A DNA stretch of 64,000 nt from assembly GCA_951406725.2 (NCBI GenBank), contig OX597814.1, positions 214,272,001-214,336,000 of the forward strand. The letters run 5' to 3'. The stretch comes from Octopus vulgaris. Its lineage: Eukaryota. The stretch's first letter is position 1, and each line of letters opens with the position of its first letter. The position numbers were made by a program, and so were the translations under genes. The notes under the pieces were generated by a model. The model searched no databases, was not told the origin of the DNA, and saw only the letters and a list, made by a program, of their open reading frames with translations. Shown piece by piece: positions 54,326 to 62,900 of this stretch.

Positions 54326-55697
54326 GGATGCAAGTATGATTCAAAAATAAAATAAAAGCAAAGGTGAAAGAGCAACAAATAAAGAGAATTAGTTTTAAAT
54401 ACTCAGGAAAAACAAAAGTCCATAAGATTTTGAACCTACACTTTTTTACAGAAAGGTTAGACAAACAGAAAAAAAAGTGTCTAAAATGGTCTCAAGGCAT
54501 GCTGAAACAAATGGAAGATGTTGGTTTGAAGAACATGTGGCAAGGGAGACAACAATGAGCTAATATACATAACATTCAATGTCATTGTTCGAAGCTGGAA
54601 TGGATTGGATGCTTTGATAGGATCCAACAGGTTCAAGGACTGCATCATGCCCCACTGTCCAAGGTAGGATCTCTACTGCCTATCATTTAATAGTATGTAG
54701 CGGGTGCTGAGCTGCTAAATTATGGGGGTGTAAACATACCAACACCAGTTGTCAAGTAGCATGGAGGGACACAAGCATGTAAATTTGAAGTGGGTAGGTT
54801 TTTCAATATCAGTATATTCCAGTCATTCTGATTCCCCGTTATCTTCTCCATTAGCTTGAAAGTCCTGAGATAAGACCTTACCACTTTCTCTGCAAGCTCT
54901 ATTCACAGTTAAGAAATTAGCAAGTCATGACTGTGTGACCAGAAGTTCATCTCACCTACATGGTCTCTGCACAGCACACTGGATAAATGCCTTCTACTAA
55001 AGGCACTCCTGACCCCTTGGTCAGGAATGACCATGGGACTGTACCTAGAAACTTGTCTGTACAAGGTTGTTATAGAGCAGTTGCCTATGCATACCATCTA
55101 GGAAAAGGCTGATACAACTTGGCACCAGAGATGTAAACTAATTTCTATAGCTTTGTGAACTGGGGCAACATGAAATAAAGTATCTTGGTCAAAAACAACA
55201 CAGCCTGGTCTGGGAACCGAAGTCACTACTTCTTGATTGCAAGCCCTGTACTAATCCATGAACATGGGTTAACCAGTCTTCCGAGTGGATTTGGTAGTAA
55301 GAAAATGGAAAGAAGTCCAGTATATATAGACATATGCACGTGTTAAGAGTGCCTGTTTCCTTATCCAGGAATTACATATTTCCTGTGGATGGCATCTAAT
55401 TAACAGTGATTTATTAAAATTTTTCATGCTCTCAAGTTAAATGATTGTCATCAAGTGTAGTCTGCTGTGTAAAAGAAGTTTAAGAAACATAGATGGATGG
55501 TAAATGATATGCTTGCAACCCTTGTTAAGGCATTGCACACTAATTGTAAATAAGCTTCAGTAGAATACAAAGTGATGCTTGTTATGCATTTGACAACAAT
55601 CTGAATGCTAAAAGGATTAAACAACGGAAGTGTCTGACAAAGCAGCCTTCTACCATTCAACCAATTAAAAGACAACAACAGAATCTTGGAATTAATA

Positions 55698-55703
55698 TTT
55701 ATT
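55698..55703 (-). promoter_or_regulatory. RPL10A: RPL10A polyadenylation signal AATAAA
   Basis: 18 nt after the TAG stop on the minus strand. Confidence 0.75.
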
Positions 55704-55721
55704 CTTCTATCTCAAGAATCC

Positions 55722-55892
55722 CTAATAAAGTCTCTGAGATGGACCCATTGTTGATGTGATGTACAGGGCTCGAACATTTTGCCAATTCTTCTTCAGCAAC
55801 GACACCAAAAAATTGATAGCAAGACTGATGTTGGAGTACAGCTGATCAGGCTTCATCTTCACATGACCAACACACACAGATAGACAAAGCAC
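55722..55892 (-). CDS. RPL10A: 60S ribosomal protein L10a (uL1), exon 5
   Basis: [13 protein letters not shown]...[30 protein letters not shown]; ctAG acceptor; 171 nt. Confidence 0.97.
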
Positions 55893-56789
55893 CTAGCAAA
55901 GGAAAAAAAAAAAAAAATTAATAATCAATCAATTAATATAGCACCAACAAAGCCAGAGTCACTCGAGACTCAGCAACACATTTAAAAATATTGACTCATT
56001 TCAATATACAATAGCTATGAAGACAATACAAAAGAATTCTTGGAAGAAAATCTAATATTCTATCCATGAAGTCATAAATATGAGTGAAGACAAAGTTGCT
56101 TAAATGGCAGTGATAACAATGTAGTAAAGGAAAAAAGAAACTGAAGGAAATGAGATATTGTCAGGGGGAGGGGCAGTGGTGGTGTGTGTGGCAAATTTTT
56201 TTTGCATATCCATAATCCCTGACATATCAAATGTAGGAATCTTAAAAAAAAAAAAAAAAAGAATTATTCAAGGAGAGGTATGAAACTGCATTAGCCTCAA
56301 TGTGTAAATTAAATATACACCACTTTAGGAGAAACAAACATTTAATAATGTTATAAAGTTTAAAAAAGTGACTCAAATGTACCCCACCCCCAAATTTTTA
56401 ACTTTTTCATCCATTTATGTCTATTTATCCCTATCCATTTATTCATAAGATTTATTTGTCAACTAAATGTGGCGGTCCTATAGAAGACAGCGTTGCTTTT
56501 AGCCCTAGGAAGATATATCTATCTCTTTATACACCTATCTATATGCTTATTGAATTTAAAAGCTTCAGAACGTGGTTTCTTGCATATCTGGAATCTGTCA
56601 TCTAAAACAAAAATAAATTATAAAAAAGTTCTAAATTTAAAATGGGAGGGGGAGAAGAATGACCGTCAACTTTTTGCATATTTGTAGTCTGACATCTAAA
56701 ATGCAAGAATCTGAAGAAAACAAAAACATTAGCCCCACAAATTCATCGCTTTTGTCACTTTAAAACTTCAGAGTAATAATGAAGTGCTT

Positions 56790-57295
56790 AACTTTCCATG
56801 CTAGCAAGGGTCAGACGATCTGACTGAGGACTGGCAAACCAAATGGCCGCACCAGGCTCCAATCTGATCTGGTTGAGTTTCTACAGCCAGATGCCCTTCC
56901 TAACGCCAACCACTCTGAGAGCGTAGTTGGCACTTTTACGTGCCACTGGCACGAGGGCAAGCCAGGTTGTATGGGCAACAGCCACACTTAAATGGTGTTT
57001 TTCGCATGCCACCAGCACAAGTGCAAGTAAGGCGACGCTGGTAATGATCACACTTGCTGCTTTTTACATGCCACTGGCAATGATCATGCTAGGATGGTGC
57101 ACTTAGCGCCCCACTAGCATGGATGCCAACCATCGAATTTTGATTTCAATTTCACCTGCCTCAACAGGTCTTCGCAAGCAGAGTTTAGTATCCAATGAAG
57201 GAAAGGTACGCATAACTGGGCTGGTTACACCCTTGACATAGGCCACGGTCTCACTCGGCTTGCCAAGTCTTCTCAAGCACAGCATATTTAACTGA
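56790..57295 (-). mobile_element. Family C element in RPL10A intron 4
   Basis: ccatgctagc...gatgcccttcctaacgccaaccactc core. Confidence 0.7.
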
Positions 57296-57339
57296 TACAA
57301 TTAATAAATTGTTACATAAAGAAAGAAACACAAACTCAC

Positions 57340-57512
57340 CTTCCTCATTTGGAATTTAATAGTAGCTTTGCAATCCTCAACTTTGGACATTATAGACTCT
57401 CCATGGGAGATTGGTGTCGGGAATTTACCAGCTTTGTTCAAACCAGGACCAAGAATTCTTGGAATTTGTTTGATGAGCGAGTCGGAAGCAAGGAAAGCAT
57501 CATATTTTTTAG
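57340..57512 (-). CDS. RPL10A: RPL10A exon 4
   Basis: [32 protein letters not shown]...TIKFQMRK; 173 nt; AG/GTGAGT junctions. Confidence 0.97.
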
Positions 57513-57904
57513 CTGAAAAATGAAAAGACACAAAAATTTCAGACATTCACAGCCAATCCATTTTGCAATCAAAACCTATAAACATACCCTTGCAATATTG
57601 ACACAACATCCAAAATAAAGAACACAACTGATATACAGCCATAACCATCCAAAAAGAAAAACTTATAGGCCCTTATGCCAACTGCTACAATTCAAATGCA
57701 ATTCCAAGAGGTTTAAGTCCCCATACAAAGGATGCTAACAATACAGATGTGTTTTGTGGTGAATAACAATATTTTTTAAGATGCATACCCCCAATGAGAC
57801 CCCACCAGTCTGGTTAAGAATCCCAATAGTTGAGAGAACCAAGCCTTCAATCCAATAGATCTAGGTTGTTTCAGTCACCCTACACTACAAGCAATAAGAC
57901 TCAC

Positions 57905-58053
57905 CCAATTTTTTAACAAGTTTCTTATTCTTGTTCAGCTTCTTCAAAGCATCGGCGTCCATACATTCAACGCTGTTTGCCTTAGCCTCATCAATATGCT
58001 GCTGATCACCCAAAAGGCAGACCTTCAACTTGGGACGTGGGATATACTTCAAC
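57905..58053 (-). CDS. RPL10A: RPL10A exon 3
   Basis: [49 protein letters not shown]; 149 nt; AG/GTGAGT junctions. Confidence 0.97.
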
Positions 58054-59382
58054 CTGAAACAGGAAAATATAGCGTTATTAAAACATACCAGATCGATCGA
58101 TCACCTTGCATGACCCTCCATATCGAACTCCTATTGGCCCCTTAGTGCACCAGATCACATATGCTTGAAAACCACCGCATCTTAAATGCCAGGTGCGACT
58201 AGTTTTAGGCTCGTTAATTTCCTAATCCCCAACAAATATGGAAACACCATGTTCTTCAACCATCACGGATTTAACCGCGGTTAAATGGGGAATTAAACCC
58301 GAAAAGGGTGTGGGTGGATGCGATCCATGTCCTTTACGTCTGCCCTAAAACCAAAACTAGACGGCAATTTTCATAAGAGAAAAAAACCTACACGTGTCAC
58401 ATATTGGATTAATCAAGTCATCAACTTTTAAAGAATTTTCGTATTCCGGCAATGCCTAAAAAACGCACGTCAGTTGTGATATCTCATGTCGGATTAAAAA
58501 AAAAAAAGTTCAACAAACGAAACTCATGAAAGTTTGAAATAAAAAGACTAACGGAAAAAATGAATTCTCTAAATTAACTAATCAAACAATATTTGTGGAC
58601 TATAATTACATGATTCTTCGCACCAGATGCAAGAAAGTAAGTCTTTCATCCACATTCCTTTGAAAGTATTTCGTCCATGTCAACACGTGGCATCCCAGAT
58701 GGCAACTAGCTCATCTCGAACGGCAAACAAGTCCCCTAACACGACGAAAACTTCTGGTAATTAAGGTCTCTTAATAGCATAGCAACATCATCCAGTGCAA
58801 CGTAATGAGGTACTGCTACGCACTCGAACAGGTGCACTCTGAGCCCTCCGCTAACTTAATTGTTCTCTCTCATCTAAAAACGGTGTACTATAGAGATATA
58901 TACATCATAGAAAGCATAAACAGAAATACCAGCAACATCAGAGACGGACTCATTTTATGCCAGCATTAAAAATATATAATGTACATGGAAACAATTAAAG
59001 CTAGATAATTCGTCTACTCACCACAAGTACAAGTTCTGCTATACAGAGCGGTGCTATTTCTTTTAGAAAAAAAGAATAGGACCTCCCCATTTAAATTTAA
59101 GACCCTGGGTAAAGGTCCGTAAGGTTTAGAAAAACCCAACTACCTAATAAGTGACTTATAGGAGGCGATCTAACGACTTTCATTAAAAATAATTTGACAT
59201 AGTGGTAGGCAAATGAAGGATTTTTGCTAGCCTAGACATTTGATCATATACATCACACATATATATATATAGGCTAGCAATTTTTTCTATGAAATCAAAT
59301 AGGATAATTAAACTGTCGTATTGTTCTGCCTCCTAGGAGTCTCTTTTATAGGTCGAATAAATAAAAAGATTGCCGTCCGTAC

Positions 59383-59538
59383 TTTACTGTACCAGAAAAC
59401 CTCTTATCTTTTTGAGGGTCGTAGTTCTTGAGGGCGATTTGTAGATCTACGGATTCGGTAAACCGCCTCTTCTTTCTCTTAGAGAAGGCGAGCATCGCCG
59501 CAATTGCTTCCTGCAAAGTATCCTTCGTAATTTTACTA
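59383..59538 (-). CDS. RPL10A: RPL10A exon 2
   Basis: [12 protein letters not shown]...[20 protein letters not shown]; 156 nt; donor AA|GTACGG. Confidence 0.97.
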
Positions 59539-59809
59539 CTGCAAAACAAAAATAAAAATATATACGTTGAGGTGTAAGCAGCATCATTAATCCTAAGTAA
59601 TATGAATACAAATACTACGACAAATCGAGACGAGGAATGAATCATGTTCAAGCTAAATTATGAAATACAGAAAATAGATTTTTACAATAAATATATACAT
59701 ATCTAAATTAAGAAAAGATATATCAAGACTAAGCAATGACAATTATGAAAAAATTAAGTATTTTTAAAACAAGATGCATGAAATTGAGAGAAGCAATAAA
59801 TTTACGAAC

Positions 59810-59814
59810 CTCAT
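59810..59814 (-). CDS. RPL10A: RPL10A exon 1 coding part (ATGAG)
   Basis: ccagccATGAG|GTTCGT; total CDS 5+156+149+173+171 = 654 nt = 217 aa plus stop. Confidence 0.9.
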
Positions 59815-59833
59815 GGCTGGAAGATGTAGTATC

Positions 59834-59840
59834 GGAAAGA
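59834..59840 (-). promoter_or_regulatory. RPL10A: TCT initiator / 5'TOP start of RPL10A
   Basis: Minus strand TCTTTCC about 25 nt upstream of the ATG, as typical of ribosomal protein genes. Confidence 0.75.
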
Positions 59841-59870
59841 CTGATTTATCGTAAGACCGGCGCAATGATG

Positions 59871-59910
59871 ACTTCCTGTATTTTCGACAAAACTCGGTAA
59901 ATTCCGGAAG
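59871..59910. promoter_or_regulatory. Paired ETS/GABP-like sites in the RPL10A promoter
   Basis: ACTTCCTG (59871-59878) and TTCCGGAAG (59902-59910). Confidence 0.5.
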
Positions 59911-62900
59911 CCGAGAATTATTTAATTCTCTAGAAATTTCTCATTTTGTTTACTTCATTCAATCTCGCATTAATTGGCCTGTTTTGCAATTAGCTTCCTG
60001 ATTATAGTTATAGAGGAATTTCTAATGGGTGTTTGTTTTATATACTTATAACAAAGGCGTGATGTAATTTCAAGAAAGTATTTTTTTATATCTCGAGAAA
60101 ATTTAAGTAATTTATGCAATTTAAAAAATAAATTCTGATATATATATATATAATTTATAACGAGTTACAAGTAAATAAAATACATAGGACTTTAGTTTAA
60201 TTTTTTTTTATTTTGTATTGTTTAAATTAAGGAAATTGTTTATGAACTTTGTATACGTAGTTACGTCCCTTTAGCTTTTGAGTTCGAATCCCGCTGAAGT
60301 AAGACTTCCCTTCACGCTTTACAGGGACCAGTGTTGAAGCGATTAATTCCGAACCCCACTAAAAATTCGGGTTTTGTGTCAGTGCTAAAACTTATTTGCG
60401 TGATCGAGTGACAGACAGTATTAGTAGAGCACCGGACGGACAAAATGATTTGTGGTATTTAGTTATGTGACCTCTCGTTTTAAATCCCCAAAAACTCTGC
60501 CCCGGGGTCAAGTTTTCATTATCGTATCTAAGCAATCGATTTGAAATTCTATTAGTCCGGTACTTGGATCGGTAAAAACTGACTGCCCTCGCACTCAAAT
60601 ATATAACCTTGTCTCTAAAACTGTACACTAATTTGTCATTATTGAATTTATGAGCACAAAACAGCAACTTATATTTAATAATCTAAAATTTTACATAAAC
60701 GTAAACCACATGTCATTTTCATTAATTATACAAATCGAATTTTTCTGCAAATATTCAGTTTTTGTTTCACGGAATTAAATTATTGCGTGAAGAATTTTGA
60801 AAATAATTTTTTCTCGATTCATTTTTTTCAAATTAATTTTTAATTCATTTTTATCGCGAAAAAGAAAAATTTAGGGTTTTATTAAATTATTTAGCAAAAG
60901 GTCGCAGATATATGTAAAACATCCTCAAATGTCACTTCCGTATGTGTAATTGCGTGTGTATACACAAGTGTGTCTGTGTACACATAAGTGTGTGTGTATA
61001 TACATAAGTGTGTGTGTGTGTATATATACGCAAGTGTGTGTGTGTATCCACCACGAGATCTCGCAATTTACCGTTCACTGCATTAGCAGTAGAGTTGATC
61101 AGGGACTAAAATACTACTAAAATACCATGATACCTCTGCGAATTTGTCTTCAAACCTGTTTATTCGGGGGCGTTAATTTCCCCCTTACGTCCAAAATCTG
61201 TAAAATTGATCGAAGGTAGGAAACACAGAATCTACAACAGCTGACATTTTCGGCTGCATCTTAGTTCCAAACCATGCTTCTTCTATTTGGTAAATTGTTA
61301 ACCAGCGACTTTGTTGTTATTGCTGCTGCTGCCCGTCGTTGTTCGTCCCTTCAGCTCTTGCCCTCTTCTCAGCCACGGCTTCTGGCTTCTCTTTCTTCCA
61401 GTCTCCAACACTCATTTCCTTCAATAACGCCTCCCCAATATAAAACAAACTCTTTCTTTCATATTTCTTTGTCTTCGTGTGGTCACACAAACAACAATTC
61501 GGTCGTATTACGTCTCTCAGACTAGTTTCCTATGCTTTCATCTTAACGTTTCTTACTAATAATTTAGGTCCCTCCCACGACTCTTACATGATGTTCCTTC
61601 GTAAATGTTGGCCAAAGCATTCAGAAAATACATTACCCACTAATCAAAACAAACCATTGCCCATAACTGATACCCCTTGTGTAAAATTGAATTTATATAT
61701 TCCTTAATTGTTGTTGATTCTTCTGCCTTTATCCTTACTAATCCTGACTATATTATTTATTCCATGTTGTCCTATAATTCTACGAAAAGTGCTTTCATCC
61801 TTCACTAAATAAACTTTGAATTCTGTTCGACAAAAAAGAAAAAAGAAAATTAAAACGTAATTTGGAGCCTTTTCACTTTCTATAACCCCTAAGTATTTTA
61901 GTTTTCATTATATCCCGAATTATTAAATTAATAATCATTCTACTGTCTTATCTCCAGCTTTTTTCCCCTTTGCAATTTATCCCCCTAATTACGTTTTTGT
62001 CCATTCTGTTTCTATCGATTTTCCAGTTTTTACCCTCATCTTTATCGTTTCTGTTATATTTACTGTTTCTTCCTAATTCTCCATGAATATTTTAGTAGAT
62101 TGTACCATTCTTGGTAAACTTATCCTGGGTTTGGTAGTTTGAGTGTAATAATAATAATATGTGTAATAACGTCACTTGTAGCTTAGCCACTGGTTTAATA
62201 ATAATAATGATGCCCAACATGTAATTAGGAAAATTAAGATATGAAAATTCTAGGGGAAAAAAAAAATTGCTATTGTTGTCAAAATTTCTTCTTTTATAAT
62301 TCTTAGAGACATGGAAAGATCTATTTTCATCAACTGCATACATTCTGTAAATTGTTTTACCAAAATATAACTGTATTAAAAAGAAAGTGAAACAGTATTG
62401 TGTAAAAGCATCAAACTTAAATTAACACTCATCAGAAAGCAATTACATTCGATAAGCAGCCACCCGATTACACAGTGGTTTTACAAGTCCAATTAAACGG
62501 GGACCTGGTACTAAACAACTATGGTGACTGGAGACAACAGGCAGCTCCTTCCAGCTGACGTGAGTTGATTTTTTTCTGTTTTGTTTTCATTCCTTACTCT
62601 TTCTACTTAATTCTTTTATTTTTTCCCCCCTATTAATTGTCAATATGGCGATATCTTATTTGACATTCTTCAGAACTGTCTAATTCTACATGAAATTATT
62701 GTTTTTTTAATGAATTGGAAATTACACCCATTATGCAAGAAATGTGTAAATATGAAGCAGACATTCACGTGCATGTGCGTGTAAAGTTGTAGGTTTTCTT
62801 GTGTTCTGCTCTGAGCTCTTATTAATCTACGTATCAAGATGAAATGTCAATAATCCAAGTTGTGTTTATTTATTCATTACTTTAACTGACAGTGGCATTG

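Follow-up and report, generated by a model that had tools for sequence, protein, structure and literature searches.

A probable L10a feedback switch in intron 2 of the octopus RPL10A gene and its predicted fold with motifs similar to the 28S L1 site

Introduction

The closest described system to the one reported here is that of L10a/rpl-1, whose autoregulation by unproductive splicing (AS-NMD) through an element termed L10ARE has been shown in worm and human (PMC4937301). According to that paper, the regulated worm intron lies between the second and third bases of the Arg53 codon, and L10ARE bears no resemblance to the L1 stalk; its main text contains neither 'pseudoknot' nor 'mollus'. In the fly, L10a binds intron 2 of RpL10Ab, from which a stable intronic RNA, sisR-8, has been described (PMC8659306), and an NMD isoform of zebrafish rpl10a rises in upf1 mutants (PMC7354994). 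uL1 binds helices H76-H78 of rRNA, a site (that of 23S rRNA) that bacterial operators mimic (PMC10931766), and a G-A pair marks the bacterial L1 sites (PMC3616713).

Here, we analysed a 64,000-nt stretch of the Octopus vulgaris genome (contig OX597814.1; hereafter, the window), for which a preliminary description had proposed an unproductive-splicing module in RPL10A intron 2. Our analysis indicates that this intron is probably an L10a negative-feedback switch, which would operate via the predicted fold of a conserved element and lead, through a downstream donor at 59021 or through intron retention, to NMD. It also supports the view that octopus RPL10A is a molluscan member of the known L10a circuit, the locus itself being an expected extension of this circuit to molluscs. 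In the titles and abstract starts that we searched, neither the molluscan case nor the structure proposed below (helices P1-P4) is described, and supplements or subscription papers could hold either.

Results and Discussion

Gene structure and position of intron 2

RPL10A is encoded on the minus strand of the window in five coding exons: exon 1 (coding part, 59814-59810), exon 2 (59538-59383, 156 nt), exon 3 (58053-57905), exon 4 (57512-57340), and exon 5 (55892-55722). The gene is single copy, a query with exon 4 finding one place in the 2.8-Gb genome, and the nearest named protein over exon 2 is L10a of Argonauta hians (94%). Intron 2 is 1329 nt long, and its acceptor at 58054 is common to both isoforms discussed below. 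The last two bases of exon 2 belong to the Lys54 codon; residues 3-53 of solved L10a chains match exon 2, and residues 55-103 match exon 3. Octopus exon 2 ends in F-S-G-T-V plus two bases, i.e. at residue 53 plus two bases. The worm primers in the supplement of PMC4937301 show a protein start that is one residue shorter and an exon ending in F-S-G-S-I plus two bases, which places the two introns at the same position. Octopus intron 2 is orthologous in position and phase to the regulated L10a intron of worm, fly, and human.

Two donors and a premature stop codon

The productive 5' splice site of exon 2 is the non-consensus AA/GTACGG (59382-59377), and GTG/GTGAGT (59021-59016) follows 361 nt downstream; both lie where the preliminary description had located them. 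The 59021 donor is the sole GTRAG within the intron. By a crude count of U1 pairing, the alternative donor scores 6.5, the productive donor 5, and each of four further intronic GT sites 7; therefore, the U1-pairing score alone proves little. Use of the 59021 donor extends exon 2 by 361 nt (59382-59022), a form represented by a contig of run X12 (see below). The extended or retained forms contain an in-frame TAA (59348-59346), 324 nt ahead of the alternative junction and 646 nt ahead of the last junction, in agreement with the earlier claim of a stop codon far upstream of later junctions. Three read-through proteins (P0001, P0002, and P0005) continue with K-Y-G beyond exon 2, which is compatible with the same productive donor.

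Junctions and intron coverage in presumed RNA contigs

We examined eight of 24 listed runs, all consisting of contigs presumed to represent RNA (none of the listed runs is recorded as such), from which isoform levels are not derivable. The table of joints was complete for four of these runs and comprised part of the rows for the other four (15 unlisted). The productive joint between exons 2 and 3 was present in seven of the eight runs (absent in X16). In X12, which derives from a close relative (organism B), a single contig spans 59020-59390 with two differences and joins exon 3. This joint skips 968 nt with CT..AC ends and corresponds to the junction 59022>58053 exactly as predicted; its contig depth is 80, against 6023 for the productive joint, and its short side measures 27 letters (25-28 in the productive joints). 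Among the joints listed, 59022>58053 was absent from the other seven runs, contigs being prone to drop rare forms, and a donor-like site at 59143 had no junction. The preliminary description had named the absence of this junction and of cross-species conservation of the intron as grounds for refutation. Neither applies: the junction was found in one of the eight runs, and conservation is seen as an element shared with other animals, which is described in the next sections.

The preliminary description had also offered a poison cassette exon as an alternative. The elements on which this idea was built are indeed there: a pyrimidine run is followed by two AGs, and the resulting exons of 38 or 32 nt (59059 or 59053 to 59022) would both shift the frame. 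A joint to 59059 or 59053, however, occurs neither in the complete table of four runs nor among the rows listed for the other four, and the sole contig with the 59022 junction is unbroken to 59390. From the joints listed, a cassette exon is very unlikely to be a product of this intron.

Contigs of X1, X2, X9, X11, and X14 continue past 59021 into the distal part of intron 2, and one X21 contig contains both of the conserved intron 2 islands (59040-59178 and 58578-58703); retained or unspliced intron 2 is thus common. These contigs could mean that the same element and feedback exist in octopods, with whole-intron retention or a fly-like stable intronic RNA as the main product and the 59021 donor in a minor role. 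Contig depth, a weak measure, points in the same direction, with 148 over intron 2 versus 11-27 over introns 3 and 4 in X1, and 23-100 versus 4-8 in X2; moreover, intron retention has been reported in human (PMC4937301) and fly (PMC8659306). However, the extension contig of X12 (depth 80) lies approximately tenfold above the distal intron contigs of that run (5-7.5) and carries the junction, the spliced form would be removed selectively by NMD, and unspliced pre-mRNA yields the same intron cover as retention. We regard predominance of retention as rather unlikely, and it would in any case be compatible with, rather than exclusive of, the feedback switch that we propose.

Coverage of another kind was seen in intron 4, where the stretch 56776-57360 is matched, in each of the four runs of the set that includes X12, by very many contigs that show joints and loose ends. 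This stretch is an abundant interspersed repeat.

Conservation among close relatives

Organism E differs from the window at 11 of the 149 nt of exon 3, and its intron 2 aligns (80%) only at 59040-59178, at 58578-58703, and at the acceptor end. The first of these blocks ends at 59040, 19 nt short of the 59021 donor. In organism C, 59284-59408 aligns with three differences and 58347-59187 also aligns, and the sequence between them (59188-59283) is replaced by 91 other letters; a long contig of organism D likewise stops at 59187. The replaced stretch holds an 11-bp stem (59224-59234/59270-59280), to which the preliminary description had drawn attention. The stem exists as described and is unusually stable (z -4.36, 0/200 shuffles), and sliding-window folding of intron 2 gave its best window there (z -2.94) and did not single out the conserved element. 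Because its stretch is replaced in organism C, this stem is not the conserved part, and a role as the relevant structure is not borne out; the hairpin (59280-59224) is better described as a variable insert inside the predicted helix P1.

The second island (58578-58703, minus strand), which is aligned in organism E, is single copy and has no Rfam match. It contains an ANANNA box at 58661, an ACA at 58596, and a 3' hairpin with z -1.98, and is possibly an H/ACA snoRNA; its comparison with rRNA yielded five weak, wobble-rich matches and no convincing target. In RPL10A introns of other animals, SNORA57-like and SNORD45-like matches were present at L047:1466-1605, L054:1972-2111, L048:637-728, and L048:1394-1463, of which only that in L047 passes the Rfam gathering score.

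An L10ARE-like element between the two donors

The supplement of PMC4937301 lists a primer for the extension of human exon 3, of which 15 of 19 letters are identical to 59116-59098; with up to three mismatches allowed, it has no match in the window. A degenerate motif was built from this primer and the window; its one match in the window is therefore no test. Among metagenome contigs, the motif was found at 61 loci; at 14 of these, an RPL10A exon 2 lies shortly upstream in the same orientation. Four of the 14 are identical, leaving 11 distinct genes, or 12 with the window; we presume some of these loci to be fish-like and others copepod-like. Two flanking features outside the search pattern, namely CGG before the motif and W'GGG-N-AG after it (where W' is the complement of the motif's W), are both present at all 14 RPL10A loci and in the window, but at none of the 47 other loci.

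These 47 loci outside RPL10A (L004, L016, L022, L023, L027, L030, L043, L050, L056, and others) were taken as chance matches; most of them belong to a few repeat families that do not have the flanking features. With a looser motif, none of 173 loci in prokaryote genomes (120 matches) and viral contigs (53) had an RPL10A exon.

The octopus element thus defined covers 40 nt (59119-59080, minus strand), lies between both donors at 265 nt from the productive one, and is single copy in the genome. As judged from the human primer and deletion flanks, this block is very likely the published L10ARE. The shared core comprises only seven fixed letters. A search of Rfam with 55500-60200 (E<=5) gave no match, and the six matches obtained with the 11 homologous loci do not cover the element. 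In the homologous introns of L047, L054, L012, L029, and L035, no downstream donor scoring at least 6.5 was found past the element. Taken together, the orthologous intron, the junction 59022>58053 in one of eight runs, and the element in 11 other animal genes favour the molluscan equivalent of L10a AS-NMD that had been proposed from the window alone.

The invariant UUAA of the element (59102-59097 region) is a stop in the exon 2 frame of the window. It also ends P0002, a read-through protein from another octopod-like source in which both ends of the extension are kept, translation stops within the L10ARE-like element, and the TAA corresponding to 59348-59346 is out of frame. The UUAA may thus be a back-up premature stop in some species.

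Predicted fold of the element and its upstream flank

In the predicted folds of all 12 genes, the C that precedes the element has a G further upstream as its partner, and this pair closes a hairpin, P2, of 15-46 nt. In 11 of the 12 genes, the four letters ahead of this G read GG-N-A, and the predicted partner of these GG is a CC preceded by A, with which they close a helix, P1, of 14-210 nt. The whole upstream pattern appears in the predicted fold of 11 of the 12 genes, compared with 0 of 1200 shuffles; the exception, L012, has G for A and also a one-base shift set by hand. As the genes were picked on the downstream motif only, this test of P1 and P2 is independent of the selection, and some of the genes are related to one another (L025/L028 and L012/L047/L054). 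The third pair of P1 is kept in 12/12 genes as U-A, A-U, or C-G, and the next three pairs in 8, 9, and 8 of 12. The first five pairs of P2 are kept in 12, 12, 11, 12, and 11 of 12, the first always being G-C and the second occurring in three types. Upstream GG pairing into L10ARE itself was also considered and was rejected, the GG pairing with the A-CC near the donor.

In the window, the 5' strand of P1 (59353-59328, minus strand; pair probability 0.99) forms part of an inverted repeat, I1, and starts with A-CC, the first C being at intron position +31. Its 3' strand (59166-59141) lies within the island aligned in organism E and ends in GG-U-A. P2 (59140-59119; pair probability 0.88) is closed by G-C and abuts L10ARE. 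Across the 12 genes, the first C of P1 is located at +8 to +31, and the element starts at +42 to +265. Inspection by eye shows a P2-like hairpin, also closed by G-C, at the end of the human deletion-primer flank.

These results bear on the view that the 59021 donor is latent, its use being splicing noise, and that the conserved block has another role, such as that of a separate non-coding RNA. The occurrence of the junction in a single contig from one of eight runs would fit this view, as would the lack of an Rfam family match. However, the block occupies the same intron, and the same place between two donors, as the L10a feedback demonstrated in worm and human (PMC4937301); it is single copy, and the predicted helix P1 ties it to the donor. 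We consider splicing noise very unlikely and retain the feedback switch as the preferred explanation.

Within the element, two further helices are predicted, P3 (six pairs, 59118-59113/59105-59100) and P4 (four pairs, 59109-59106/59089-59086), which cross without a spacer and leave an A-rich loop of 7-10 nt. Pairing holds in 119 of 120 cells, the lone miss being a misaligned row, and two of 500 shuffles scored as high, with P3 fixed by the pattern. The pairs of P3 never change on both sides, an invariance that is largely circular given the search pattern. P4 shows one compensatory pair, its outer pair being A-U in nine genes and U-A in three; the latter are three vertebrate-like loci, and the change probably represents one event. 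The element alone folds at z -1.85 in a program that cannot model pseudoknots. An H-type pseudoknot in L10ARE is thus a plausible model.

Similarity to the L1 site of 28S rRNA

In the Rfam LSU consensus, GG is paired with CC, GA faces UA, and the next G closes H78 as a G-C pair. We presume that the H77/H78 letters GG-N-AG and A-CC are the uL1 contact in rRNA. The L1 stalk of octopus 28S departs from the eukaryote consensus in its core, having GG-U-AG with A-A-CC (L063:2553-2882, G000:C20). Its H78 also carries approximately 150 extra GC-rich letters.

Two sites in intron 2 repeat the rRNA pattern with the strand order swapped. At site A, formed by the predicted base of P1 together with P2, A-CC is paired with GG-N-A-G; at site B, in P4, Y-A-CC is paired with GG-K-A-G. 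Two G-C pairs, N-A facing A, and a second helix closed by G-C are found at site A in 11 of 12 genes. Site B has the G-C pairs and the A in all 12, and a second helix is not evident there. A G-A pair next to the stem is present at site B in eight genes and at site A in one; octopus 28S has U-A at this place.

These similarities suggest a model in which L10ARE is the 3' half of a larger, animal-wide fold that is absent from Rfam. Two helices of variable length would bring a pseudoknot to within 8-31 nt of the productive donor, and the fold would mimic the 28S L1 site twice, in permuted form, and act sterically. We put this model forward tentatively, at slightly less than even confidence. The element could also be functional without mimicking the L1 stalk, L10a reading the sequence of L10ARE, P3 and P4 being alternative hairpins, and P1 and P2 serving only to shorten the intron. 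Such a reading accords with a shared core of so few fixed letters, with the general absence of the G-A pair from site A, and with the use of a folding program that does not model pseudoknots, as well as with the statements in PMC4937301 that L10ARE is unrelated to the L1 stalk and that deletion of L10ARE alone abolished regulation. However, 11 of the 12 genes have the A-CC/GG-N-AG combination at two places in the intron, its unpaired A's are fixed and would be needless for plain helices, and L10ARE was insufficient in another context (PMC4937301). We regard recognition without mimicry as less likely than not.

Proposed mechanism

In the mechanism that we propose for the feedback switch, surplus L10a would bind the predicted fold of the element. 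P1 would close a variable stretch of 14-210 nt, by which its base would come to lie 8-31 nt from the productive donor; P2 would come next, and L10ARE would stack on P2 as an H-type pseudoknot made of P3 and P4. If, as we infer, the H77/H78 L1 site is copied in circularly permuted form at both site A and site B, bound L10a would be near enough to hinder U1 at the weak productive donor. Splicing would then shift to the 59021 donor or to intron retention, and the extended or retained mRNA, with its premature stop, is predicted to be destroyed by NMD. In this scheme, binding, feedback, and NMD are borrowed by analogy from the worm, fly, fish, and human papers. A block of splicing after 5' splice site recognition, as in yeast RPL22, is another possible step.

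Three points are left open in PMC4937301, namely that L10ARE has no apparent likeness to the L1 stalk, that it seems too far away for steric hindrance, and that it is not sufficient alone; the P1/P2 module would account for all three. If the model is true, L10a splicing feedback would use the same rRNA mimicry as the translational feedback of bacterial L1, one recognition motif would link bacterial and animal feedback by uL1, and the RNA family would be new to Rfam. The main value of the structure model beyond the locus itself is that it names pairs relevant to worm and human reporters.

Comparison with known systems

The octopus locus resembles L10a/rpl-1 (PMC4937301) in the gene, in the position and phase of the intron, in an element of approximately 40 nt between the donors, in the premature stop, and in signs of retention. 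It differs in being molluscan and in the distance of 265 nt between the element and the donor. The text of PMC4937301 does not describe the features that we propose here, namely a P1/P2 module, a pseudoknot, and L1-like motifs. Fly RpL10Ab and zebrafish rpl10a also have a second 5' splice site further down the orthologous intron; a stable intronic RNA is described for the former, and a response to loss of NMD for the latter.

In the yeast RPL22 intron switch (PMC13630204), splicing is likewise inhibited by a ribosomal protein bound to a structured intron, although the protein is a different one and the block follows 5' splice site recognition. The bacterial and archaeal uL1 operators (PMC10931766, PMC3616713) have a stem with G-C pairs on its flanks that also carries a non-canonical pair and an unpaired A. 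The octopus sites are similar in build, and some bacterial operons have two uL1 sites each, like sites A and B. Unlike these operators, the octopus sites have the strand order of rRNA permuted, with the G-A pair unevenly represented (8/12 genes at site B, 1/12 at site A). Furthermore, what the operators block is translation, whereas the target here would be a splice site.
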